This document shows, in pieces, positions 2 through 43,463 of a stretch of 64,000 bases of DNA. This DNA is from an uncultured Methanosarcinales archaeon (lineage in GTDB: Archaea; Halobacteriota; Methanosarcinia; Methanotrichales; Methanotrichaceae). The notes beneath the pieces are model-generated. The model saw only the letters and a program-made list of their open reading frames with translations. It did not search any database and had not been told where the DNA came from. The stretch spans positions 45,700 through 109,699 of the forward strand of contig CAWJKV010000016.1 of NCBI GenBank assembly GCA_963843555.1, read 5' to 3'. How positions within the stretch are numbered: the first letter of the stretch is position 1; every line of letters starts with the position of its first letter. Both the position numbers and the translations under genes were made by a program.

Positions 2-1519
2 GTGATTCGAAAAGGCTCTCCGAATCAATCACCAGGAACGATTGTGGAAATAACTGGAAGGAAGAAACCAAGACTATTTGATGAGTACGTAGACAAGATA
101 AATTTAATTGATGTCGTCGATGCCTACGCATTGGCCTGCGAATTCCCAATAGAAGCCCATTGCCTGATTGATGAAATAGGGAATGACATTTCGATTCCTT
201 GCACAATTGTAATCCCAAAAACGGAAATTGAAATAGCTGGAATTAAGAATCAATTGAGCTTTGAGCAAGAATTTTTTGAGATCGATTCTAATTTGAGGGG
301 ATACGTTCGAGCTAGCTTCCTCCTAAATAATTTGGGCAAAATTGATTTAGCTAATTCTGAAGCACATTGGGATATAGGTAACTTTGGACCTTGTCTTGTG
401 CTGTCAAATGGCTTAAAAATAAAAGAATCATCAAGAAAGGGCGCAATTTGTTTGGATGGAATTTATGTGTGTGGCAATCCAGAGTATCGCAGCGAAAGAC
501 ATTTCATGAACTTCACAATTTGGAGCAATAATTATATCCCTCTCGAAGGAGATTATTATTTACTGGATGTAAGGGGCATTCTCAAACCACCCTTAACCAC
601 TTCGAGGGATCCTCCAAGAGATCCTCCTGAAGGGTCTCGTTGGGATCGACTTGCATGTATGGCAAATCTAGCAAGAGCCAGATTATGGGAGAAGGTAGCT
701 CAAACCATCGGAGATAGATTGGATATTGATACATTCTGGAAATTAGCTTTGATACATAGAGCCCCTATCCCATGGTTGCCCGCAAATACAGTATGGTCAA
801 AATTATCTGTTCCCATTGTCAAGAATAATGAATTTATAGAATGGAGAGAGGTCTCATCCCTAGGGAATTTATATGTGAGAAAAGATACATCATCAGAAAA
901 AGCAATATGCAGAGGGTTGTATCAAATTTTTACTGAAAACGGCTTGGAAATCAAAGCTTCGAAGGATTTAGCCAAATGGGAACACAAAGTCCGAATTCGT
1001 TATGGGTGCCTAAATGAACAATTATTCAATCTAATTATTAGCTTTTCCATAGTTAAAATACTGCAAGGAGATGCCTGCATTTATCTGTCTGAGCCGTTAC
1101 TAAATGAATCTCTGATTGTATATCGCATCAACTCAGTATTTTTGCTGCAATATGCAGGTGAGCTGGCCGAAGTTTTCACGGTTCAATTACCTTTTAAAAA
1201 TGCTAACCGCAATCATGCACTCGTTCGAACCGCATTCGATGCTAATTATGTAGAACATCTATCCGATATTCAAACATTTGCTCGTTCTTTGGTCCGATTC
1301 CTTGGTGATACGGATAATTTGAAAGCTCTAATGGATCCTGATGCATATAGCCACCCTGGGATTAATCGATGGATGCGTCATCTCGGCTACCAATACAATT
1401 CGATAGATTGGGAAAATTATGCTCCAGATCTTTCTCCTCCCTACAAGATTTGGCTGGGAGACCGAGGCATCTTTGAAATAACACATGATCATTTCGAAGC
1501 ATGGGCGTCTCTAAAATAA
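2..1519 (+). CDS. 5'-truncated large AT-rich protein; probable C-terminal part of an HSP90-like ATPase (HD-CE-associated) conflict/defence protein
   Basis: 505-codon ORF open at the window edge. N-terminal 'PGTIVEI' resembles the GHKL G2 box. Visibly more AT-rich than the core genes. Family assignment is tentative. Confidence 0.5.
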   Translation: MIRKGSPNQSPGTIVEITGRKKPRLFDEYVDKINLIDVVDAYALACEFPIEAHCLIDEIGNDISIPCTIVIPKTEIEIAGIKNQLSFEQEFFEIDSNLRGYVRASFLLNNLGKIDLANSEAHWDIGNFGPCLVLSNGLKIKESSRKGAICLDGIYVCGNPEYRSERHFMNFTIWSNNYIPLEGDYYLLDVRGILKPPLTTSRDPPRDPPEGSRWDRLACMANLARARLWEKVAQTIGDRLDIDTFWKLALIHRAPIPWLPANTVWSKLSVPIVKNNEFIEWREVSSLGNLYVRKDTSSEKAICRGLYQIFTENGLEIKASKDLAKWEHKVRIRYGCLNEQLFNLIISFSIVKILQGDACIYLSEPLLNESLIVYRINSVFLLQYAGELAEVFTVQLPFKNANRNHALVRTAFDANYVEHLSDIQTFARSLVRFLGDTDNLKALMDPDAYSHPGINRWMRHLGYQYNSIDWENYAPDLSPPYKIWLGDRGIFEITHDHFEAWASLK

Positions 1520-1630
1520 TATCAAATTTTATTTGGCATATCTTACCTTCTACTCCCAGAATGTGCGAATATTTGTGGCGCGGGCAGTCGTCCCGACTCC
1601 AGATGAGCATGATACGCCACGACTGCGTCC

Positions 1631-1857
1631 TCCTGCGGCCTCGGCCCAAAGGCAGCCATCCCTGCCAAGCGCCATCGGTGATATGCTCCCCGCGCGTATG
1701 CCCGTCCATACATGCACGCGGCCCGCCTGATTGCCCATCGACATGAGCCCGGACGACCCGGACCACAGGCGTCAGCAACGAGCGCAGCCCGGGGCAACGG
1801 CCGCAACCACTGTCGATGGCTGCCTGGGAGACTAACCATGCTCGCTGGATCGCAAAA
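1631..1857 (+). repeat. GC-rich array repeat R1 (left-arm type A)
   Basis: Core AACGAGCGCAGCC at 1777-1789, followed by CGGGGCAACGGCCGCAACC, GTCGATGGCTGCC and GGATCGCAAA. The left arm aligns with R3 and R8. Confidence 0.85.
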
Positions 1858-1925
1858 CTGGAGAATGCTTATGAATTGTCTCCAAAAAAATCTCAGCACA
1901 TCTGGATCACAAGATTTCATTTTGC

Positions 1926-2273
1926 CTATTTTGCAACCTGAGATCGGACAAATTCCATGAATTGACGCAAGCTTATGCCGGGATTATCATCCATATAGCT
2001 CTCCTCAACTGCATCCTGAGAACCGTTATGAAAGTGCTTGGGATAAGTCGATACACTCTGCCAGTTTGAATCTGGAAAATTGTCGTGACGTTACATGGAG
2101 CCATCGATGTGTCTTCTCTCCCAATGATAGGAAAACCGACCTGAGATTTTTAAGGAGAATCATATATCGATAAATGAGCCATCATCCACAAATGCTCTGA
2201 GCTTGCCGCGAGAAATGATGGAATCAGTCGAAATATCTGCATATTCTGTATCGATGATTCTCTTCAGCATCAT
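1926..2273 (-). pseudogene. DUF6516/TumE-like toxin, copy 1, with two in-frame stops
   Basis: Manual translation: MMLKRIIDTEYADI...GSFIDI*FSLKISGRFSYHWERRHIDGSM*RHDNFPD...YPKHFHNGS...FMEFVRSQVAK. Stops are TGA at 2160-2162 and TAA at 2091-2093. Confidence 0.7.
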
Positions 2274-2281
2274 TAGATCTG

Positions 2282-2566
2282 CTACTGTTGAGGAAGGTTC
2301 TTCATCGCGGCTAATAGCTCATCTCTTCTGGATTCCAGGTAGTCGAGCTCCTGAAAATCGTCCAGAGCATCCTCCCCCCTAACTTCTCCCTTTTTCAGCT
2401 TATCATCCAGCTCAAATATGGATCTCACACCATGCTTTGTCCTGATCTCGAATACCTCTGCTTCAATGCATCTCAGTTCTTTCTCCAAGAAGGCCTTGAT
2501 GCTAGCCCGAGCAAGAACGTCACGATCCATCTTCAGGGCACTTGCAACCTCATCGATAACTTCCAT
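2282..2566 (-). CDS. Putative antitoxin partner of the DUF6516 toxin, copy 1 (94 aa, MEVIDEV...)
   Basis: Small acidic helical protein immediately upstream of the DUF6516-like gene. Nearly identical to 6400-6681. Confidence 0.7.
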   Translation of the reverse strand: MEVIDEVASALKMDRDVLARASIKAFLEKELRCIEAEVFEIRTKHGVRSIFELDDKLKKGEVRGEDALDDFQELDYLESRRDELLAAMKNLPQQ

Positions 2567-2680
2567 GATCGAATACCATCCAATAAGACTGTCATTAAGA
2601 TATTTCAATCCTACCGTTTCTAAAATATGCGTGTATAGAGAAGGATGCCAGATTCCTACTCTCTGAAAGAGATGAACAAT

Positions 2681-2800
2681 TGGCCTCCAGCGCGCCCGAG
2701 CACGAGCGCCTTCCAGGCAAGCCAGTCCGCCCAAATGACATCGCAGCAAGCCCGGACGTTCCCGGACCACAGGCGGCGGCCACGAGCGCAGCCGGGCCGG
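2681..2800 (+). repeat. GC-rich array repeat R2 (left-arm type B, short right arm)
   Basis: GGCCTCCAGCGCGCCCGAGCACGAGCGCC...AAGCCCGGAC...GGCGGCGGCCACGAGCGCAGCC (core 2781-2793). Confidence 0.85.
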
Positions 2801-2883
2801 AGGCAAGGCAAGTGGAGGTTCGGTGTTTCTGTAACAGAAAAGATTTATTGATAGGACGACAAATAGTCAAATGAAGGCTGTCC

Positions 2884-3168
2884 ATGAGTTACGAAAAAAT
2901 CACTTACCGCCTTCATGCGGTTCAGAGGATGTTCGAGCGCAAGATCAGTGCAGAAGAGGTTCGGTACGTGCTGGAGACGGGAGAGGCGATTGAAGAATAT
3001 CCTGACGATACTCCATACCCAAGTTGCCTGATCCTTGGAAGCTACAAAGGTCGCCTCATCCATGTAGTAGCGGCAAATAATTTAATCGACGAGGAGAAGA
3101 TCGTAATCACAGTCTACGAGCCAGATCCTTCTGAATGGGACCCGGATTGTAGGGAGAGGATTTCATGA
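2884..3168 (+). CDS. DUF4258 family putative RelE-fold toxin
   Basis: HAVQRMFERKIS, IEEYPDDTPYPSCLILG, IHVV and IVITVYEPD..W motifs. ATGA overlap with the next gene. Confidence 0.9.
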   Translation: MSYEKITYRLHAVQRMFERKISAEEVRYVLETGEAIEEYPDDTPYPSCLILGSYKGRLIHVVAANNLIDEEKIVITVYEPDPSEWDPDCRERIS

Positions 3169-3392
3169 AATGCGTTATTTGCAGAAAAGCATCTACGAAG
3201 CCCGGCACAACAACAGTTACTTTTGAGCGTGGTTGCCTGACAATGGTGGTGAAATGCGTGCCCGCTCAAGTTTGCCCCAATTGTGGCGAAGCATACATAA
3301 GCGAGTTGGTTACGGCCGAGTTGCTCGATGATGCAGAAGAGCGAGCCAAGACTGGTGCCCAAGTGGAAATTCGACAATATGTGGCGGCCTGA
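3165..3392 (+). CDS. YgiT-type/MqsA-like zinc-finger antitoxin
   Basis: MKCVIC...VPAQVCPNCGEAY (two CxxC motifs), paired with DUF4258. Confidence 0.9.
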   Translation: MKCVICRKASTKPGTTTVTFERGCLTMVVKCVPAQVCPNCGEAYISELVTAELLDDAEERAKTGAQVEIRQYVAA

Positions 3393-3439
3393 TTTACTTT
3401 TATCGGACGGGCTGCCTGACGGCCCAATTGGTAACCGCC

Positions 3440-3600
3440 CACCTCATGGCAAGCTCCTGCGCGTGTATGTGCCAACCTTACGTGCATGGGTCCGCGCGCA
3501 GACCGACTTCACAGAAGCCCGGACAGCCCGGCCTCAGGCGACAGGCCACGAGTGCAGCCGCACCACCAACGGTCGATGGGCTGCCTGGCGCTGCTGCCAG
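3440..3600 (+). repeat. GC-rich array repeat R3 (left-arm type A)
   Basis: Core CACGAGTGCAGCC at 3547-3559, then GCACCACCAACGGTCGATGGGCTGCC..GCTGCTGCCAG. Confidence 0.85.
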
Positions 3601-3643
3601 TAATCGACAAGTATTGCTCAGTCGGAGATTCTTCTGAATGATT

Positions 3644-4087
3644 TTATTCCCGCCCATCAGTCCTTGAGGCGTTTTCCAACCATTTTTCAGGGCTTATCGC
3701 TAGCACTGATTTCGGACAGCGCTCTAACATCTCTTCATCCCACGAAATCAAAACGGCATCAAAATCCAGAGCAACAGCTGCATAAACAGCATCTGCACCA
3801 CGAAGGCGATTTTCAATAGCAATCTCTGCCGCACGAAGAGCGAGAGTCAGATCCAGAGGAACCTGTGTCATTCCAGGAAAATGCTTTATGAGATTGACCA
3901 GCCTCCCGGATAAAAGCGAGTCTCCGGTCGGCCTGGCAATAGCGGCCCCACACTCGGCAAGCACAAGAGTAGGGCAGAATATTTTTGCTCCTTTTACGCT
4001 ATGCAGGAAACGGTAGCTCCGAGGATATTGTTTTTCAGAAGGTCGGGCTGCAGATACAAAGACGCTGGCATCAATTGTCAGGTTCAT
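3644..4087 (-). CDS. vapC: VapC PIN-domain toxin
   Basis: MNLTIDASVFVS, LAEC, LRGADAVY and LISWD: the PIN acidic residues. ATGA overlap with the upstream antitoxin. Confidence 0.9.
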   Translation of the reverse strand: MNLTIDASVFVSAARPSEKQYPRSYRFLHSVKGAKIFCPTLVLAECGAAIARPTGDSLLSGRLVNLIKHFPGMTQVPLDLTLALRAAEIAIENRLRGADAVYAAVALDFDAVLISWDEEMLERCPKSVLAISPEKWLENASRTDGRE

Positions 4088-4341
4088 CTCCTCATCTCGG
4101 CAAGAATCTCCAAAGCGCTCTTCTTGCTCTTCCATGCCGAATCGATTTCATGGGCCAAAGCCAGCCACTCTGCATCCCAGTCAATTTCCTTTACCACATC
4201 CTCAGAGGATCTTAGTGGAACCAGTACAGCCATGGGTCTGCCCTCTGGGCCGATCAGAGTAGCTGTCTCACCTGGAGATAGTTTCGCTAGAATATCTTCA
4301 AGATTCTTTTTGGCCGAGTCTACAGAAACCTCTACCGACAT
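4084..4341 (-). CDS. Phd/YefM-like antitoxin
   Basis: SAKKNLEDIL...GETATL...GRPMAVLVP, a Phd-like pattern. Translationally coupled to vapC. Confidence 0.8.
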   Translation of the reverse strand: MSVEVSVDSAKKNLEDILAKLSPGETATLIGPEGRPMAVLVPLRSSEDVVKEIDWDAEWLALAHEIDSAWKSKKSALEILAEMRR

Positions 4342-4469
4342 GATTGACTCCTTCGTAATAATAATTTCATTTTCTTTGATTTATGTACAGCATGCTATTA
4401 AAAGTTAACCAAAAGCAAATCATCGTAGTCTGAGATCAATTGCATCGAAAGTCGCCAGGCCAAAACGGA

Positions 4470-4623
4470 CTCCCCCTGCTCTAGCACCTGTCAGGCAATC
4501 CAGCCCGCCGTGACGACTGTGCCGCTGGCCCGGCCCATAGGCGGTGGCCACGAGCGCAGCCGCACCACCAACGGTCGATGGGCTGCCCGACGCTGCTGCC
4601 AGCGGCCCGCAAGGATCGCAAAA
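4470..4623 (+). repeat. GC-rich array repeat R4 (left-arm type B)
   Basis: Core CACGAGCGCAGCC at 4549-4561. The right arm is shared with R3 and ends GCAAGGATCGCAAA. Confidence 0.85.
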
Positions 4624-4658
4624 GCTGTAGCTTGCAACAGATCGCTCTGCTAAAAAGT

Positions 4659-4698
4659 CTCTGTGAGTCCTCTGTGCGCTCTGTGTCTTTGTGGTGAA
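4659..4698. repeat. CTCTGTG micro-repeat (4 units)
   Basis: CTCTGTG-AGTC-CTCTGTG-CG-CTCTGTG-T-CTTTGTG-GTGAA. A degenerate counterpart occurs near 7780-7810. Confidence 0.75.
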
Positions 4699-4800
4699 AT
4701 TGTTAGTTGTTAAGTCATAATTATCGGCTAATATTAATAACAAACCAAATGCATTGCTTTACCAATCCTGCACCAGGATAACTGCTTTTTCAGTAGCAAG

Positions 4801-4876
4801 CACCACCTGGCCTCAGGCCCGACCGGCCTCCTGCCCGCCCGGACAGCAGCACAGCAAGCCAGGACGCCCCGGCCAA
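4801..4876 (+). repeat. Partial array repeat R5 (left arm B only)
   Basis: CACCTGGCCTCAGGCCCGACCGGCCTCCTGCCCGCCC...GCAAGCCAGGACG. Lacks the CACGAGCGCAGCC core. Confidence 0.7.
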
Positions 4877-4933
4877 CGGTTGGGGACAGAAAACCAGGAC
4901 ACTCTTGCGGGAACTGTCGACAGGCATTATTGT

Positions 4934-5440
4934 TCAATCCTCATTCTCGCTCGAAGTATGCAATGCCTTTTTGTATATTTCTTCGCCTATCCAGAAACCA
5001 GCGTCATTTCTCAACCTGTCGAGCTCCTCTTTGAGCGATGCTATTCTTCCCTCTCGCTTGGCCCTAATCAAGATACCTATCACGCCGGATATGTTCAATC
5101 CATACACTCCAGCCGTCTTTCTCGCCTCGCTTTCGTCCAAAAATACAACATCCGGATTCAGCTCGACTGCCAGAGCTATAGTCTCAGATTCGCCTTCATG
5201 TAGATCCCTTTGTAGAAAACAGATAAGAGGGCGATTTGCAGGTGCAACGACATCTATCCTTCCCAATTGTCGTCCCTCTTCTACCTCAGAGGAGCCGGGC
5301 CATTTCCGGCCTTCCTGAACTACCTCTCTCCAAACAGCCGGTGCTATGAGAATCTTTTTATGAAACTCGAAGAGAAGATACAAGCGTCCAATCTTTGCCA
5401 GATGTATTAGCGTTGAAGAATCACTGATTGCACCCGGCAT
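4934..5440 (-). CDS. DUF3368 PIN-like toxin
   Basis: ISDSSTLIHL, LHEGESETIALA, FLDESEAR and GVIGILIRAK motifs. Confidence 0.9.
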   Translation of the reverse strand: MPGAISDSSTLIHLAKIGRLYLLFEFHKKILIAPAVWREVVQEGRKWPGSSEVEEGRQLGRIDVVAPANRPLICFLQRDLHEGESETIALAVELNPDVVFLDESEARKTAGVYGLNISGVIGILIRAKREGRIASLKEELDRLRNDAGFWIGEEIYKKALHTSSENED

Positions 5441-5690
5441 ATTTTAAATCCTCTTCTAGCTCAGCTTCTCCATAGTGACGGTTAACCTTACGCTGGCCAA
5501 GAAGATCTTCGAACTGCAGACGCGTAAGGCCACTTAGGGCAGAGGCTTTTCCAGAGGATAGCATTCCTCGCTGGTAAAGCGCCAGAGCTAATTCTTTATA
5601 GAGTTCTGCTTCCACATCATCAGGTGGGACCCTAAGAGCATTTATTATCTCTTCAGGGATCTTTAAGGTTCGAGCGCTCATTTGATTCAT
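5421..5690 (-). CDS. UPF0175 family antitoxin
   Basis: ELALALYQRGMLSSGKASALSGLTRLQFEDLL...ELEEDL. Overlaps the DUF3368 gene. Confidence 0.9.
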   Translation of the reverse strand: MNQMSARTLKIPEEIINALRVPPDDVEAELYKELALALYQRGMLSSGKASALSGLTRLQFEDLLGQRKVNRHYGEAELEEDLKYAGCNQ

Positions 5691-5788
5691 GCTCCATTTC
5701 CATAATAATAGCAGAGATTATTAATTAAGCTTTGGCAGCAGAAGAGAATTCCGAGTTTTTAGAAGCTCTTGTGATATCTTATGAGCAA

Positions 5789-5971
5789 CCCGACCGGCCT
5801 TCTGCTCTCTCACGAGCGCTCATCAGGCAATCCAGCCGCCCAGACGACAACGCCGCAAGCCCAGACACTCGGACCACATGCGGCGGCCACGAGCACAGCC
5901 CGGGGCAACGGCCGCAACCAACGGTCGATGGCTGCCTGGCGAGACTAACCCATGCTCGCTGGATCGCAAAA
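5789..5971 (+). repeat. GC-rich array repeat R6 (left arm B, right arm as in R1)
   Basis: Core CACGAGCACAGCC at 5888-5900. Right arm nearly identical to R1. Confidence 0.85.
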
Positions 5972-6039
5972 CTGGAGAATGCTTATGAATTGTCTCCAAA
6001 AAAATCTCAGCGCATCTGGATCAACATGATTTCATTTGC

Positions 6040-6388
6040 CTATTTGGCAAGCTGAGATCGGACAAATTCCATGAAATGAACGTAAGCTTATGTCCGGATT
6101 ATCATCCATATAGCTCTCCTCAACTGCATCCTGAGAACCGCTATGGAAGTGCTTGGGATAAGTCGATACACTCTGCCAGTTTGAATCTGGAAAATTGTCG
6201 TGACGGTACATGGAGCCATCGATGTGTCTTCTCTCTCAATGATAGGAAAACCGACCTGAGATTTTTAAGGAGAACCATATATCGATAAATGAGCCATCAT
6301 CCACAAATGCTCTGAGCTTGCCGCGAGAAATGATGGAATCAGTCGAAATATCTGCATATTCTGTATCGATGATTCTCTTCAGCATCAT
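6040..6388 (-). pseudogene. DUF6516/TumE-like toxin, copy 2, with one in-frame stop and a 3' frameshift
   Basis: Trp-to-TGA at 6236-6238 (YH*ERRH). The two codons that are stops in copy 1 are sense here (TGG, TAC). One extra base near 6075-6080. Confidence 0.7.
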
Positions 6389-6399
6389 TAGATCTGCTA

Positions 6400-6681
6400 C
6401 TATTGAGGAAGGTTCTTCATCGCAGCTAATAGCTCATCTCTCCTTGATTCCAGGTAGTCGAGCTCCTGAAAATCGTCCAGAACATCCTCCTCCCTAACTT
6501 CTCCCTTTTTCAGCTTATCATCCAGCTCAAATATGGATCTCACACCATGCTTTGTCCTGATCTCGAATATCTCTGCTTCAATGCATCTCAGTTCTTTCTC
6601 CAAGAAGGCCTTGATGCTAGCCCGAGCAAGAACGTCACGATCCATCTTCAGGGCACTTGCAACCTCATCGATAACTTCCAT
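6400..6681 (-). CDS. Putative antitoxin, copy 2 (93 aa)
   Basis: Intact near-identical paralogue of 2282-2566. Confidence 0.7.
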   Translation of the reverse strand: MEVIDEVASALKMDRDVLARASIKAFLEKELRCIEAEIFEIRTKHGVRSIFELDDKLKKGEVREEDVLDDFQELDYLESRRDELLAAMKNLPQ

Positions 6682-6795
6682 GATCGAATACCATCCAATA
6701 AGACTGTCATTAAGATATTTCAATCCTACCGTTTCTAAAATATGCGTGTATAGAGACGGATGCCAGATTCCTACCCTCTGAAAGAGATGGACATT

Positions 6796-6978
6796 TGGCC
6801 TCCAGCGTGCCCGAGTACGAGCGCCTGCCAGGCAAGCCAGTCCGCCCAAATGACATCGCAGGAAGCCCGGACGGCCCTGCCCGAGGCGGCGGCCACGAGC
6901 GCAGCCCGGGCAACGGCCCAACCAAGGCCAGCGGCTGCCCCGGCGCTGCTGCGCCAGCGGGCCGCAAGGATCGCAAAA
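6796..6978 (+). repeat. GC-rich array repeat R7 (left arm as in R2, full right arm)
   Basis: Core CACGAGCGCAGCC at 6894-6906. Ends GCAAGGATCGCAAA. Confidence 0.85.
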
Positions 6979-7016
6979 CATTTGATTTGGCAAAATCGAA
7001 ATATATCATCCAACTT

Positions 7017-7232
7017 TTACACGCTTACCTCTACAGAAGCCGCCGTGGTAGTTGGTTCAGGTATGCTTAGAGACGCTTCCTTTAGCCCTTCCAGGTGGAA
7101 CTCTATTGCCTCTTTCATCAACTCTAGCGTCTCCTTTCTAGTTGGACCGGTTGCTATGACACCTGGCAAATCCGGACAATAGGCGGCGTAATTATTTTCA
7201 GCTTTTTCAATAATGATCAGATACTCAGTCAT
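7017..7232 (-). CDS. hicB: HicB family antitoxin
   Basis: YAAYCPDLPGVIATGPTRKETLELMKEAIEFHLEGL...IPEP. Confidence 0.92.
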   Translation of the reverse strand: MTEYLIIIEKAENNYAAYCPDLPGVIATGPTRKETLELMKEAIEFHLEGLKEASLSIPEPTTTAASVEVSV

Positions 7233-7443
7233 CTTTTCCGACCTCCTTGATACCGCTTTGTCTTAAAATGCTATTCAAGGTACCCTTTGGTACTTCATCA
7301 TCCAAATTCCCTGAGATGGTCACCAATCCACTCTTGAAATGATGCTTGTACTGTCTGTGACTGCCTCTGGTTCTATCAAGGAACCATCCATCCTCTTCTA
7401 CTAGCTTGATGACGGCTCGGACTTTCAAATTGTTAGCCCTCAT
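7225..7443 (-). CDS. hicA: HicA family toxin
   Basis: EDGWFLDRTRGSHRQYKH...VPKGTLNSILRQSG. Confidence 0.92.
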   Translation of the reverse strand: MRANNLKVRAVIKLVEEDGWFLDRTRGSHRQYKHHFKSGLVTISGNLDDEVPKGTLNSILRQSGIKEVGKDD

Positions 7444-7506
7444 TGAGATATTTAACCAATCATAATAGCCTCTCTAGACATATAATTGATTTGCCGCGTG
7501 GCAAAT

Positions 7507-7746
7507 CCTGGCGCCCTCGATCTATTGGCAGCCCACGTCCGCGCCGCGTTACCTTCGATGGCATGCTCCCGCGCATGGGTACCCGCTCGTGCGCACACGC
7601 GAGCCCGCCCGGATGGCAGCGCAGCAAGCCCGGCTGGCCAGGCCCGCTGGACTGCGGCGGCCACGAGCGCAGCCCGGGGCAACGGCCGCAATCGCAGTCG
7701 ATGGGCTGCCCGGTGCTGCTGCCAGGAGCCCGCAAGGATCGCAAAG
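7507..7746 (+). repeat. GC-rich array repeat R8 (longest; left arm A)
   Basis: Core at 7662-7674. Left arm aligns with R1 and R3; right arm ends CCCGCAAGGATCGCAAA. Confidence 0.85.
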
Positions 7747-7897
7747 CCGGAGGCCCCTTGATTGCTCCAAGGAGTCTCAAGTCTCTGCCTCTGTGTTCGG
7801 CCTGTGTTAATTGATATAATTATCTGACAATAATACTAAATCATAATCTCTTTCCAAAATCCGGTCTGCTGAATTGCCTCCCACCAGAGGCTTTCGT

Positions 7898-7919
7898 CAC
7901 CTGGCCCCAGTCCCGACCG
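7898..7919 (+). repeat. Vestigial array repeat R9 (start of left arm B)
   Basis: CACCTGGCCCCAGTCCCGACCG, compared with CACCTGGCCTCAGGCCCGACCG in R5. Confidence 0.55.
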
Positions 7920-7974
7920 AGGAATTGCGAGCTAAAAGCTATATCCCATCACTGACAATAACTTCAAAGCGGCA

Positions 7975-8205
7975 ATGGATAAAGCGGTCTATGAGATCAT
8001 TGACGATCCAGAGCCCTTTTATGGCGAGATACCGGAGCTTCAGGGTGTCTGGGCTTCAGGAAAGACATTGGAGGCCTGCCGTGACACCCTCATGAGCGCC
8101 CAGGAAGACTGGATTGCCTTCCGCCTTAGAACGGGACGGTCCATTCCGCCGATAGGTGGAGCTTCAATCGCAGTTTCATTGGAGCCGGTGAGCGTTGTTG
8201 AATAA
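7975..8205 (+). CDS. hicB: HicB family antitoxin (N-terminus probably eroded)
   Basis: FYGEIPELQGVWASGKTLEACRDTLMSAQEDWI...IPPI. Confidence 0.8.
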   Translation: MDKAVYEIIDDPEPFYGEIPELQGVWASGKTLEACRDTLMSAQEDWIAFRLRTGRSIPPIGGASIAVSLEPVSVVE

Positions 8206-8220
8206 GCTCACTCCTGTCTT
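8198..8220 (+). pseudogene. Possible N-terminal stub of a HicA toxin (MNKLTPV...)
   Basis: TTG start overlapping the end of hicB. Resembles the HicA N-terminus but is cut off after about 7 codons. Confidence 0.4.
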
Positions 8221-8690
8221 AGTAAAAACCTTTTGATTTTTCTCTACCTCAATAGTACGAGCAGCATAGCTGTTCTCTTTAAAAAAACCAGAGAATAAAC
8301 TGTTGCCCGGAACACTCCAGTATCTTCGGCAAGTACTATAGACGGTGATACTTGATTCAATCCGTGCTGGCTAAGATCGTGGCCGACGACCGGAAATCCT
8401 GCCGCCGACACCGCATTGCCCAGAAAGACTATGGCTCGTTGCTCGGCATATTTTCCTTTAGCTTCATCCGCCCCTCAGGCAGCTCTGGATCAGTCCTCCG
8501 GAAATAGCTCACTGCTGCCAGCACAGCAATGATGAGAACCACCCAGTTGAGCCATCCCTGCCAGTAATGAAGTGTACCCGCCCAGAGCATAGACAATAAC
8601 AGGAATTATAAGGGCCGCCTGGCCGAACCTGATTATCACAAGCTTCCTCAGCGCATTCAGCCTCTGCTGCTTAAAATTGCATCATCTCCT
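8221..8690 (-). pseudogene. Isoprenylcysteine carboxyl methyltransferase family membrane protein remnant
   Basis: Fragments in different frames: GTLHYWQGWLNWVVL..SYFRRTDPELPEGRMKLKE and FLKENSYAARTIEVEKNQKV. The 3' half is missing. Confidence 0.65.
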
Positions 8691-9659: not shown

Positions 9660-10313
9660 ATGAATAAAATGCATGGACCCATCGGCCTCGCGCTGATGGG
9701 GGCCGCTTTTGTTTGTTTTTGTATTATGCTCAGCGCCTCGGCAGCCCATATGCCATCAAATCTGCCGGACTTGCAGAACGAGTTAAGGAAATCCAGCTCT
9801 GTTCCTTTTGAACAGATCCCGGACATGCAGCATCGTATTCGAGAACTCATGCCCCAATCATCGCCTTCCAAAGAAGAAGTCGATCTGTTGGGATCATCTC
9901 CAGTGGCCCAGGTTCCGGATCTAAAAGCGATAAATACAATCAAGCAAAGAGATATCGTCTATGATGAGGCCCAGAGTGGGGATCCTGAATCACAGGGTCT
10001 TGTCAATTCCATGGATGTCAGCATCACAGGCCAAGAGCCTGCAAAAAACGATGCTTTCGGCAAGGGTGGAAGTGGGGATGACATAGAAAAAATTGTTGAT
10101 GATGCATTTAACAATCGCATGGAAAATAAAAAGAATGATGGCAGAGCGAAGTCACAGCAGATGGGCAACAATCTGAACATCGATGTGAGCGGAATTTCCG
10201 TCAGCGCCCTGAATACTGTGGAAGGGGGCAGTGCGGTCGCCACCTCTAATATTATCATAAGACCGGTGCAGATCATCATAAGCCCATCCGAGGTTGAAGA
10301 GAAGCTGAAGTGA
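9660..10313 (+). CDS. Secreted hypothetical protein
   Basis: MNKMHG start, hydrophobic N-terminus, C-terminal AVATSNIIIRPVQ similar to the upstream gene. Confidence 0.7.
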   Translation: MNKMHGPIGLALMGAAFVCFCIMLSASAAHMPSNLPDLQNELRKSSSVPFEQIPDMQHRIRELMPQSSPSKEEVDLLGSSPVAQVPDLKAINTIKQRDIVYDEAQSGDPESQGLVNSMDVSITGQEPAKNDAFGKGGSGDDIEKIVDDAFNNRMENKKNDGRAKSQQMGNNLNIDVSGISVSALNTVEGGSAVATSNIIIRPVQIIISPSEVEEKLK

Positions 10314-10439
10314 TTTGTGTAAAAATTTGGAAGTGGGCTTTGTACCAATCTTCGTGCAGAGACTCCATTTCCTCCTTTTCTTATTCGATTCTGAGCTATC
10401 ACAAACTATAAGGGTATTTTGTACCATCCTTTTGTCGAC

Positions 10440-11789
10440 ATGACCATTCAAAGACCGAGAGGCACCCGGGACTTTCTTCCTGAGGAGACATGGAAGCGCG
10501 GCAGAGTTCGCCTTGCTATGCAAGATGTGTTAGAGCGGTGGGGATACCAGGAAGTGGCCACACCCACTTTTGAACATCTAGAGCTATTCACCAAAAAATC
10601 AGGCGCATCCGTGATGGAGGAGATCTACAGCTTCCCGGACAAGGGTGGTCGCAACCTCGCCCTCCGGCCGGAGCTGACAGCTCCTGTGATGCGCATGTAC
10701 GTCTCCGAGCTGCAGAATTCGCCGAAACCCCAGAGGCTCTACTATTTTGGCAACTGTTTCCGCTACGAGAGGCCCCAGAAAGGACGTTTCAGGGAGTTCT
10801 GGCAGCTAGGTGCGGAGCTGATTGGTGGAGCTAAGCCCGATTCGGAAGCCGAGGCAATATCCCTGGCAGACCAGATTCTGAAGAGCCTGGGTGTGAAGGG
10901 AGACATTCACGTCGGCTACCTGGGACTTATCCGGTCCCTGCTCGGCAAGATCAAGGCAGAAGATCGACCTCTATTGATGAGAATGATCGATAAAAAGGAG
11001 CGCGAGGCCCTGAAGGCCTTCTTGCAGGAGACCGGCCAGGGCCATCTCGGCCTGCTGGAATTGATCGATCTAAAAGGCAAAGAGGCCCTGGACAAGGCCC
11101 TGGAGATCGCCCAGGATCTGGGGCCGCTTGAACCCGCTGCGGCTCCCTCTACGAATATGCAAACGGAGCCTTCCCCGGGGGAGCGCAGTTCGGCTCGCCA
11201 GGGCAGGTCTGTAGGCGCAGAGCTCCGGCTGGATGAGTTTCAAGAGACCGTAGATCTTCTGGAGGCCTATGGGGTCGACTTCCAAATAGACTTTGAGATT
11301 GTGCGCGGCCTGGAGTACTACTCCGGAACGGTCTTTGAGATCTATGCGGAGGGGCTGGGCGCACAGCGCCAGATCTGCGGCGGAGGCACATACGAACTGG
11401 CCAGCCTCTTTGGGGGTAAGGAGACCTCTTCTACGGGCTTTGGCCTGGGATTTGATCGCATAATGGAGATAGTGCAGATAGTCGAGAAGCGAAGGTCGCC
11501 CGTCTTTTTGGTCTATATGCCTGATGTCAAAGTAGAGGCAATTAGGATCGCGAATAAGCTGCGCCAGATGAATCAGAATGTTCCGGTCGTGCTGGATGTC
11601 ATGGGCCGGAGCCTGACGGCACAACTTAAGGCAGCTTCCAGCGCGGGAGCAGAGTTTGTGGTAATAATTGGCAAAGACGAGCTGGATGCCGGATCTCTCA
11701 CCTTGCGGGATATGAAAGGTGGCAAGCAGGAGAGCCTGACGCTGGGGGTTATCGAGGAGCGGCTGAGGGCGCATTTTCGGGTTTCGTAA
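10440..11789 (+). CDS. hisS: Histidine--tRNA ligase
   Basis: RPRGTRDFLP, LRPELTA, FRYERPQKGRFREFWQ, RGLEYY and GGGTY motifs. Confidence 0.98.
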   Translation: MTIQRPRGTRDFLPEETWKRGRVRLAMQDVLERWGYQEVATPTFEHLELFTKKSGASVMEEIYSFPDKGGRNLALRPELTAPVMRMYVSELQNSPKPQRLYYFGNCFRYERPQKGRFREFWQLGAELIGGAKPDSEAEAISLADQILKSLGVKGDIHVGYLGLIRSLLGKIKAEDRPLLMRMIDKKEREALKAFLQETGQGHLGLLELIDLKGKEALDKALEIAQDLGPLEPAAAPSTNMQTEPSPGERSSARQGRSVGAELRLDEFQETVDLLEAYGVDFQIDFEIVRGLEYYSGTVFEIYAEGLGAQRQICGGGTYELASLFGGKETSSTGFGLGFDRIMEIVQIVEKRRSPVFLVYMPDVKVEAIRIANKLRQMNQNVPVVLDVMGRSLTAQLKAASSAGAEFVVIIGKDELDAGSLTLRDMKGGKQESLTLGVIEERLRAHFRVS

Positions 11790-18027: not shown

Positions 18028-18798
18028 TTATTCACCAAGGTAACTCTTGATCAGATCGTTTCTATCCGCTATTCCCGCGAGCTTTCCTTTATCCACAACT
18101 GATATTCTGCCCACGTCATGCTTGAGCATCAGCTCGATGGCTGCGCGCACGCTTTCTTCCGGCCTTATGCTATATAATGGCGAGCTCATAAATTTCTCTA
18201 CTGGCATCGAATCCGACGGCCTTCTCTCACTCTCCTTGCCAATCCTGGCGGTGCCTTTTAGAAGATCAAATCTGGTGATCATTCCCATTGGCTTGCCGTC
18301 CTTAACCACAGGCAACCCGGTGAAGTCCTTCTCCACCATTTTGCCCCATACCTCAGTCATAGGGTCATCCGGGCTGGCGGTTACAACTTTGGTGGTCATG
18401 ACCTCGCTAATCAACTTATCAGGAACTTTGGATATGTCAATGTGCTTGAATATATCCATGAGGGTGACAACTCCCTTTAGCGTCAGGTTCTCCTGAGAAT
18501 CCACCACGGGAAGCAAGGAGCTCTTCTCCTTGAGCATGATCCTCGCCGCTTCTAATACATCCGTTTTTTCAGTTACAGTGGGAACCTGCACCATGAAACC
18601 CGATATAGTAACATTCGATTTTGTAGACGTCACTCGCAGCATATCCTGATTTGTTACGATCCCCAGGACACGGCGTTTGCTATCCACGACCGGCAGTCCA
18701 CGCACATGGTTGTCTCTGATCAACTGACGCGCTTTGGTCAGAAAAGTCGAATCCTCAACGTATAGAGGATCTCTGGATAAAATATCTTCTACTAACAT
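18028..18798 (-). CDS. CBS-domain protein
   Basis: RGLPVVD and TGLPVV...GMITRFD motifs. Confidence 0.9.
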   Translation of the reverse strand: MLVEDILSRDPLYVEDSTFLTKARQLIRDNHVRGLPVVDSKRRVLGIVTNQDMLRVTSTKSNVTISGFMVQVPTVTEKTDVLEAARIMLKEKSSLLPVVDSQENLTLKGVVTLMDIFKHIDISKVPDKLISEVMTTKVVTASPDDPMTEVWGKMVEKDFTGLPVVKDGKPMGMITRFDLLKGTARIGKESERRPSDSMPVEKFMSSPLYSIRPEESVRAAIELMLKHDVGRISVVDKGKLAGIADRNDLIKSYLGE

Positions 18799-42642: not shown

Positions 42643-43251
42643 TCAGGACTTATCTCCTGCAAGGAATCCGGGCAACTTAGACCGCATATACGCCTCGCGG
42701 CGGTGGTTGGGACTGACTTTGAGGTATATGCTCGTTGTGGCCAGGGACGCATGCCCTAGCTGGTCCTGCACGTCGCCCACAGGTAACGCCGCTATCCAGG
42801 CTCCAGACGGCGAAGCTATGCCTGAGCATGTGATGGTGGACTCGATGTCTGTTCTTGCCTGCCTTGTCCTGACGCTTGACCTCTTGCAGACCAGCTCTGG
42901 TAGCTATGCCATCGAGGATATTCTGGGCCTGTCGGGAAGTGATGTGGCTATCTCGATAGCTCTGGAACAGCCAGCCCTTAGAACGCCCTCCGAGCAGCTT
43001 TGATATGGCCTCGGCGACCTGGGGGAGAAGAACCACCGTGCGCGCCTTTTTGAACTTGGCATTGATGACGGGGACATGCAGATACCCTTTGCTGAAATCT
43101 ACATCTTCGGCTCTGATCTGGGTCATCTCACTCACACGTAGGCCAGCTCCAGCCAGAAGGAGCAGTATACATCGCTCTCTCGTTCGTCCTGGGAGGACTT
43201 GAGCAAGGCGTTGAACTCTGCATGGGTGAGATGAGAAAAGGAAGACCTCAT
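42643..43251 (-). CDS. Tyrosine recombinase, catalytic domain only (two frameshifts)
   Basis: Reconstructed: MRSSFSHLTHAEFNALL...GLRVSEM...AKFKKAR...HMLRHSFA...QLGHASLATTSIY, giving the R-K-H-R-H-Y catalytic set. Confidence 0.88.
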
Positions 43252-43463
43252 TACTTTTAAGCGTACGTGGTCGTCGTGCCAATGTATATGCAATGTTAGT
43301 ATTATGGCCTAGAACTACTTGCTTCTTTTCAAGCAGAAGTCTAAGATGTTTATAATTGGGTAAAAATTTCAGGCTGTCATCACCACATTATCAACGAGAT
43401 TAGCATTAGGTCTCCCAACACCTTTATTAATCAAGTTACCATTTCCAGAAGGAGGCTTGAATT

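Follow-up and report, generated by a model that had tools for sequence, protein, structure and literature searches.

A duplicated toxin–antitoxin cassette is one module of a genus-wide array system in archaea

How toxin–antitoxin (TA) pairs without mobility genes of their own move and cluster is an open question in the main text of PMC2701414. Here we examine a locus at which a scaffold for such clustering is visible, countable and testable. The locus lies in a stretch of 64,000 nucleotides (nt) of archaeal DNA, hereafter the window (G000:C16:45700-109699, G000 being its source genome), in which a cassette with a TumE-like toxin gene occurs twice. We find that the duplicated cassette is one module of a genus-wide TA array system, whose modules stand between copies of a GC-rich repeat and are probably shuffled through homology between those copies.

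An initial annotation, made from the letters of the window alone, held that 1746-2793 recurs at 5858-6906 with three other TA modules in between, and this was borne out. In a blastn self-alignment, copy 1 (1746-2796) and copy 2 (5858-6909) are 95.17% identical over 1056 columns; aligned globally, they differ at 50 places. Pfam identifies the modules between them as DUF4258/YgiT, Phd/PIN and UPF0175/DUF3368. The two units and their genes are as follows.

1746..2796, forward strand: duplicated unit, copy 1 (blastn, 95.17% to 5858-6909)
1926..2273, reverse strand: TumE-like toxin gene, copy 1 (translation; stops at codons 38 and 61)
2282..2566, reverse strand: presumed antitoxin gene, copy 1, 94 amino acids (aa), open (role assigned from position)
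5858..6909, forward strand: duplicated unit, copy 2 (blastn)
6040..6388, reverse strand: TumE-like toxin gene, copy 2 (broken by a stop at codon 51 and again by a frameshift close to the 3′ end; low end approximate)
6400..6681, reverse strand: presumed antitoxin gene, copy 2, 93 aa, open (translation)

The unit thus carries, on its minus strand, a TumE-like toxin and an upstream partner of 94 aa. This fits the TumE–TumA layout, in which a DUF6516/TumE toxin has a short upstream partner; the available text of PMC10584680 describes the toxin family. An intact toxin homologue at another locus (L027) matches Pfam TumE at E=3.5e-11, and toxin copy 2 retains a Pfam TumE fragment match at 6032-6211. 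The partner matches no family in Pfam or NCBIfam and would presumably neutralise the toxin. The toxin's closest titled relatives carry the label Methanothrix or Methanotrichaceae, which suggests that the source belongs to Methanothrix, a major group of methanogens.

The lesions in the toxin gene differ between the copies, which fits two real, decaying copies. Alternatively, the second copy could be a long-read chimera of two strains with different array orders, an explanation that would concern this duplication only. The G000 assembly is 82% complete, carries frameshifted genes and has a foreign-looking start to its contig C18; related strains show other orders; and none of the contigs listed from the four sequencing runs bridges both copies. 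Against a chimera, each copy has its own flanks as well as its own toxin lesions, the single-contig genome G052 holds two copies of a HicAB module at 94.5%, and gene-sized types recur within the arrays of G051 and G067. We therefore regard a chimera as highly improbable, and the genus-wide system holds either way. The initial view that the copies are no simple assembly echo is upheld by the recurrence of shuffled modules across genomes. The start of C18 (G000:C18:1-23000), with a far higher GC content and unlike the remaining genome, is probably foreign DNA joined during assembly. Cover is absent at 1000-1533 in all four runs; neither this gap nor the contigs of the RNA run are informative on habitat or expression.

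What delimits the cassette is a repeat of ~228 nt, GC-rich, mosaic and variably truncated. A repeat model of 228 positions, built from 27 near-full copies and searched with nhmmer, gave 368 hits, which come from 32 genomes and cover 58 of the 62 loci examined; these loci were chosen because of prior hits, and the share with hits does not measure how common the repeat is. With a natural full-length copy as query, matches were obtained in 38 of the 58 other genomes in the genus, in 0 of 46 genomes from other genera of the order and in 0 of 300 genomes drawn from the phylum (two candidates per genome scored). More divergent GC-rich repeats with a related look were present at three (L104, L123 and L039) of five further TumE-module loci scanned, and the four of eight bacterial TumE loci that were scanned had no comparable repeat array.

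Arrays with at least three repeats number 46 across 29 genomes. Among 300 segments between repeats, 172 are the size of a gene, and 21 recurrent types account for 148 of them; the types scanned are mostly TA pairs, some without a family. The commonest segment is a gene-less spacer of ~160 nt, spacer F (95 of 300). Module order is shuffled: 124 neighbour pairs comprise 105 distinct ones, 14 pairs were seen in both orders, and around the TumE module 6 different neighbours were counted upstream (9 cases) and 7 downstream (8 cases). Polarity relative to the repeat is constant, agreeing in 503 of 504 within-type alignments, with the exception formed by two paralogous subtypes at 66%. The idea that a cassette bounded by repeats moves as a unit is carried by this recurrence, shuffled and with constant polarity, across 29 genomes. 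The accompanying idea that the TA pair travels with the same half-arms is not supported: in G024, G013, G015 and G019 the TumE module has other arms on both sides.

Environmental contigs show the same variety. HicAB lies before TumE in contigs of two wetland and soil runs, opposite to the window, and spacer F follows TumE in contigs of three runs, unlike the window; these joints were called at 90% likeness near repeats and need caution. Environmental TumE-module alleles are ~2-4% off the window copies. This is close to the difference between the copies, so that the second copy may come from a related strain and not from copying within the genome.

In the window itself, the modules follow a head gene and are set apart by eight copies of the repeat (R1-R8). 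Families below were assigned with Pfam and repeats with the repeat model (R1 with nhmmer), except where another source is given.

2..1519, forward strand: HD-CE/HATPase head gene, 3′ half of a 1032-aa gene (full open reading frame L001:16421-19519; Pfam HD-CE E=1.8e-55)
1721..1864, forward strand: repeat R1, model 78-227
2678..2798, forward strand: repeat R2, model 33-151
2884..3392, forward strand: DUF4258 + YgiT zinc-finger module (Pfam, TIGR03831)
3504..3628, forward strand: repeat R3, model 89-227
3644..4341, reverse strand: Phd-like + PIN (VapBC-type) module
4455..4629, forward strand: repeat R4, model 25-225
4630..4802, forward strand: spacer F, gene-less, bearing a conserved AT-rich motif of TATA-like form (alignment of 67 copies)
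4803..4881, forward strand: repeat R5, model 15-127, ending short of the core proposed initially
4934..5690, reverse strand: UPF0175 + DUF3368 module
5789..5978, forward strand: repeat R6, model 30-227
6795..6981, forward strand: repeat R7, model 35-223
7017..7443, reverse strand: HicA/HicB module
7585..7752, forward strand: repeat R8, model 53-226, then a degenerate spacer resembling F that reaches about 7920
7975..8205, forward strand: UPF0150/HicB-like gene, the final array module

Where, then, did the duplicated unit break? Both breakpoints are confirmed to lie inside repeats, the left one at or before about 1790 and the right one between 2758 and 2793. The initial annotation was correct to this extent; the sharp boundaries that it placed at a repeat core are not seen in pairwise alignment, and neither breakpoint is mappable to a base in the core. 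Between the cassette copies, identity is 94-97% over 1790-2758. At the left end, 8 of the 44 nt in 1746-1789 differ, and the resulting identity of 82% is little higher than the 74% mean between repeats of one array. The left arms of R1 and R6 do differ, the two being unlike upstream of 1746, as had been claimed; their shared right arm is not diagnostic, its start being common to R8, which flanks another segment. At the right end, R2 and R7 diverge after 2793/6906 as described, and their supposedly shared left arms part company at 2759-2771, with 6 differences in 13 nt (54% identity) and R2 there resembling R1 and R6, unlike R7. The following 22 bases (2772-2793) are 100% identical between the copies and nearly exact in R4 and R8 too; being near the array consensus, they have little diagnostic value.

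Duplications elsewhere argue against a crossover fixed in the core. Among 21 within-genome duplicated tracts listed, 8 were examined at base level. Starts and ends of such duplications fall at model positions 152/26, 115/46, 166/127, 183/124, 91/116, 116/118, 56/146 and 117/146; in 152/26, 115/46, 116/118, 91/116 and 56/146, among others, repeats hold both ends. The 152/26 tract, 908 base pairs at 98.7% in G012 (L040:7190-8089 versus 9989-10896), consists solely of gene-less spacers and repeats. A tract whose start lies beyond its end is the product that two independent crossovers would yield, and is unexpected from one fixed crossover. Linkage along the repeat is also short-ranged: in 2842 within-genome pairs from 26 genomes, stretches of the repeat separated by more than ~40 nt show mostly no correlation, even inside one arm. 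Linkage dips at model 30-45, 80, 100, 115 and 135-140, the last being the deepest among well-sampled positions. Across genomes, repeats flanking the same module show an excess identity of -0.03 to +0.10 with no core step (311 and 353 pairs), a comparison weakened by divergence between species. The scattered tract ends and short-range linkage speak against the single fixed crossover point of an integron. The core may be a favoured crossover site at most, one of several.

We consider it probable that the cassettes are shuffled by homology between repeats, with no integron enzyme. The system works like an integron array and is not one. A module, usually a TA pair, would be flanked by two copies of the repeat, and recombination between repeats at any of several conserved blocks would delete, copy or insert it. 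The module would travel either in a small circle or on a linear piece of DNA out of a related cell. Every event would yield two hybrid repeats, leading to mosaic repeats and a single polarity per module. Toxin addiction would counter module loss; with a second copy or an antitoxin present, the toxin gene would be free to decay, as in both window copies. We infer the form of the intermediate, the addiction step and the enzyme, which may be RadA (radA is present).

Several points weigh against this proposal. The 74% mean identity within one array is low for RadA, and the searches returned MutS as well as a weak match to NucS. Linkage is lowest at the core (r 0.07), and the window and G052 duplications both end there, at model 146. 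Later events can rework old tracts and would then scatter breakpoints under any mechanism, and the neighbour-pair counts are not independent. Homology also leaves unexplained how a new TA pair gains its first repeat and why the repeat is confined to the genus.

Some of these points would suit the model behind the initial annotation, in which a dedicated trans-acting recombinase cuts at or near the core, as for clusters of attC sites lacking integron-integrases (CALINs), and later homologous reworking produces the scatter. The constant polarity of modules, the linkage minimum at 135-140, the 113 of 368 repeats that end at model 130-169 and the two duplications ending at 146 are all consistent with it. 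The searches for an enzyme argue the other way. IntI (TIGR02249) was found in 0 of 59 genomes at E<=1e-30, where the control was also silent; its absence alone still allows a CALIN. The window's tyrosine recombinase (open reading frame 42677-43282, 201 aa), at a distance of 35 kb to the array, reaches 42.5 bits where the cut-off is 265 and is below all NCBIfam cut-offs, and six array-bearing genomes, one of them 97% complete, have no PF00589 hit. These genome-wide searches covered IntI and PF00589, with serine recombinases, transposases and other enzymes not searched at that scale. Among proteins flanking the arrays (123 clusters; 68 representatives scanned, the others partly judged from prior scans), no recombinase, transposase or reverse transcriptase recurs; insertion sequence transposases are sporadic near arrays and never recurrent.

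The repeats themselves do not resemble recombination sites of the integron kind. They fold no better than shuffles (z -1.5 to +2.5 for either strand of 10 segments, with parameters for RNA and for DNA), and the consensus fold of 21 aligned repeats reaches -6.5 kcal/mol with a covariation of 0.03 and no covarying structure. The sole attC box pair in 1501-8300 spans 7008-7147, over hicB (no curated attC model used). An attC-like structure is thus without fold, covariation or box support, and R5 and other repeat copies lack the core altogether. We judge a dedicated recombinase unlikely. As to Xer/dif (pdif) modules, for which 28-bp dif-like sites in inverted orientation at the module flanks would be expected, the repeats here are long and direct; just 3 of the 368 hits, each of them at L031, are inverted, and no inverted pair was listed within a repeat (no dif-motif search was made). 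Neither a circle nor a reaction was observed; backward contig joints give no evidence of circles, having 31-59 letters on the short side and being explained by repeat variants or allele placement.

Other origins of the repeat were likewise considered. In Rfam no repeat was matched, with just 4 sub-threshold snoRNA hits off the repeats, and together with the folding and covariation scans this leaves a structured non-coding RNA array without support. A coding origin of the main repeat was rejected on its frequent 1-nt indels and the lack of a match among G000 genes (not searched further). A viral carrier (two exact repeat patterns, 0 hits in viral contigs) and a plasmid carrier (one natural repeat, 0 hits in plasmids) were set aside, each on a test that is weak for a divergent repeat.

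A further explanation starts from composition. One strand of the repeats is T-poor, strongly so in R7 (14 T in 186 nt), spacer F is the commonest segment with a highly conserved TATA-like motif, and breakpoints are regional rather than site-fixed. Repeat and spacer F could thus form a transcribed, strand-skewed, switch-like unit, in which R-loops or breaks from F transcription would focus recombination on the region. F transcription is, however, predicted only, with RNA-run contigs silent on expression level and strand; G and C are near balance in R2, R4, R7 and R8, making the G-skew weak; and spacers derived from gene ends function without F. We think such a unit quite improbable.

Spacer F also bears one arm of a motif similar to a palindromic family of short heptamer-like repeats, found at G000:C9:77797-84982 (in tandem), C6:99185, C3:26183 and C17:5791. 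A possible link of the spacer motif to GxxExxY was dropped, PF13366 not being found in G000. A separate dispersed element of ~300 nt, with two facing GC-rich halves (L001:15340-15640; 39 blastn pieces on 14 contigs of G000), could be an RNA or resemble a miniature inverted-repeat transposable element.

The spacers other than the repeat bear directly on the mechanism. In G000, extra copies of gene ends, 137-338 nt long at 80-95%, also space TA genes: the truA 3′ end three times, and the alaS 3′, leuS 3′ and mutS 5′ ends once each, separating PIN, DUF433/DUF5615, ParE and similar genes. At least two truA ends occur in 10 of 59 genomes, some distant from truA, and pairs far from truA flank different cargo in G000, G065 and G068. 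Since unrelated sequences act as spacers, homology is indicated and not one enzyme's site. GC-biased conversion at the ends of anchor genes was rejected: the truA and alaS ends are at about the 90-99th percentile of GC, a richness shared neither by leuS of G008 nor by three ilvC genes.

Individual loci illustrate this variety. At L136 (G000:C3:106776-110629) the truA 3′ end stands in three copies with TA genes between, and further truA-end loci are L144, L146 and L152. The alaS 3′ end at L137 (G000:C5:58238-59602) and the mutS 5′ end at L138 (G000:C10:24386-28056) are duplicated around TA-like genes, the latter locus having its own GC-rich repeat of ~100 nt. Three further G000 TA arrays with other or divergent GC-rich repeats are L139 (C11:20344-29813), L141 (C2:176562-181750) and L002:8740-14170; by contig position, such arrays lie at C11 20-30 kb and 46-52 kb and at C2 176-182 kb. 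In G012, GC-rich direct repeats of ~220 nt (L041:16823-17044 and 18473-18701), 1.6 kb apart, resemble a duplicated gene end.

We also entertain, tentatively and with more doubt than belief, that Methanothrix has a dedicated, independently arisen integron analogue. Its promoter-bearing, strand-skewed repeat would be a region-specific target, through a trans factor or transcription, and would recruit new TA or defence modules and spacers such as the truA ends.

The arrays have a characteristic genomic setting. The leuS 3′ end lies upstream of the array in 13 relatives' loci and in G000, with a second copy of it in 5 of those 13 and in G000, and ilvC lies upstream in 5 loci. In G000 the leuS 3′ end is duplicated (197 nt, 88%) at L001:14200-15280 (G000:C16:41900-42980), with a ParE-like toxin and a short partner between the copies. 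Between anchor and array stands a variable head gene, of the Gabija, CBASS cyclase, SIR2 or GmrSD type or of no known family. PADLOC models at E<=1e-6 match 8 of 18 head proteins scanned, the window's own giving one weak HD-domain hit. The arrays thus sit at defence hotspots, with variable defence genes at a conserved anchor, and the HD-CE/HATPase gene may have a defence role, judging from the genes that occupy the same slot in relatives. Downstream flanks of the leuS arrays differ, only L030 and L094 sharing theirs among 7 with at least 5 kb, background rearrangement being uncontrolled.

The 10 of 18 head proteins without a PADLOC match are candidates for novel antiviral systems of archaea. 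Among the recurrent modules, at least two match neither Pfam nor NCBIfam. Modules and head genes without a library match include L027:9310-10061, L029:7424-7642, L096:13924-17175, L097:13057-14427 and L002:14546-17842. We regard the unmatched recurrent modules and head genes as candidate new TA or defence genes.

How does this system compare with known ones? A search at title and abstract level, with most subscription journals outside its coverage, found no description of these arrays; a TA cassette system that spans a genus, does without an integrase and sits at defence hotspots is apparently undescribed so far. Rhs, contact-dependent inhibition (CDI) and MafB orphan-toxin arrays, tycheposon tRNA-fragment islands and pdif modules all exchange modules via repeated flanks. 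The Methanothrix arrays differ from these in a non-coding repeat, in whole-operon modules and in that no integrase or Xer-type site was seen. The available text of PMC4158269 has nothing on such arrays. The core defence hotspots of PMC10250203 and PMC9122126, as far as their available text goes, likewise hold variable defence genes at conserved anchors, here leuS and ilvC; the Methanothrix arrays differ in that a repeat-spaced array comes after the head gene and that gene ends are duplicated and reused as spacers. TA islands are described in PMC2701414 as groups of TA pairs that are unrelated to one another and whose clustering is not explained by tandem duplication, with preferential insertion or cassette transfer left open as their cause; the word 'repeats' is absent from its main text. 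The Methanothrix arrays also cluster unrelated TA pairs, and in them a repeat scaffold is visible.

The closest comparison is with integrons and CALINs, including archaeal ones, as defined in the main text of PMC9668308, from which Methanothrix, Methanosaeta and Methanotrich- are absent (its supplements may list taxa). Like these, the arrays carry tandem small modules between repeats, are TA-rich, shuffled and of fixed polarity to the repeat, and include gene-less cassettes. Unlike them, they have no IntI found and no attC hairpin or R boxes, their ~228-nt repeats are mosaic and truncated, their genes point in both directions and their breakpoints are scattered. If plain homology is at work, integron-like behaviour is possible without an integrase; if a factor is required, the arrays would represent a new recombination system.

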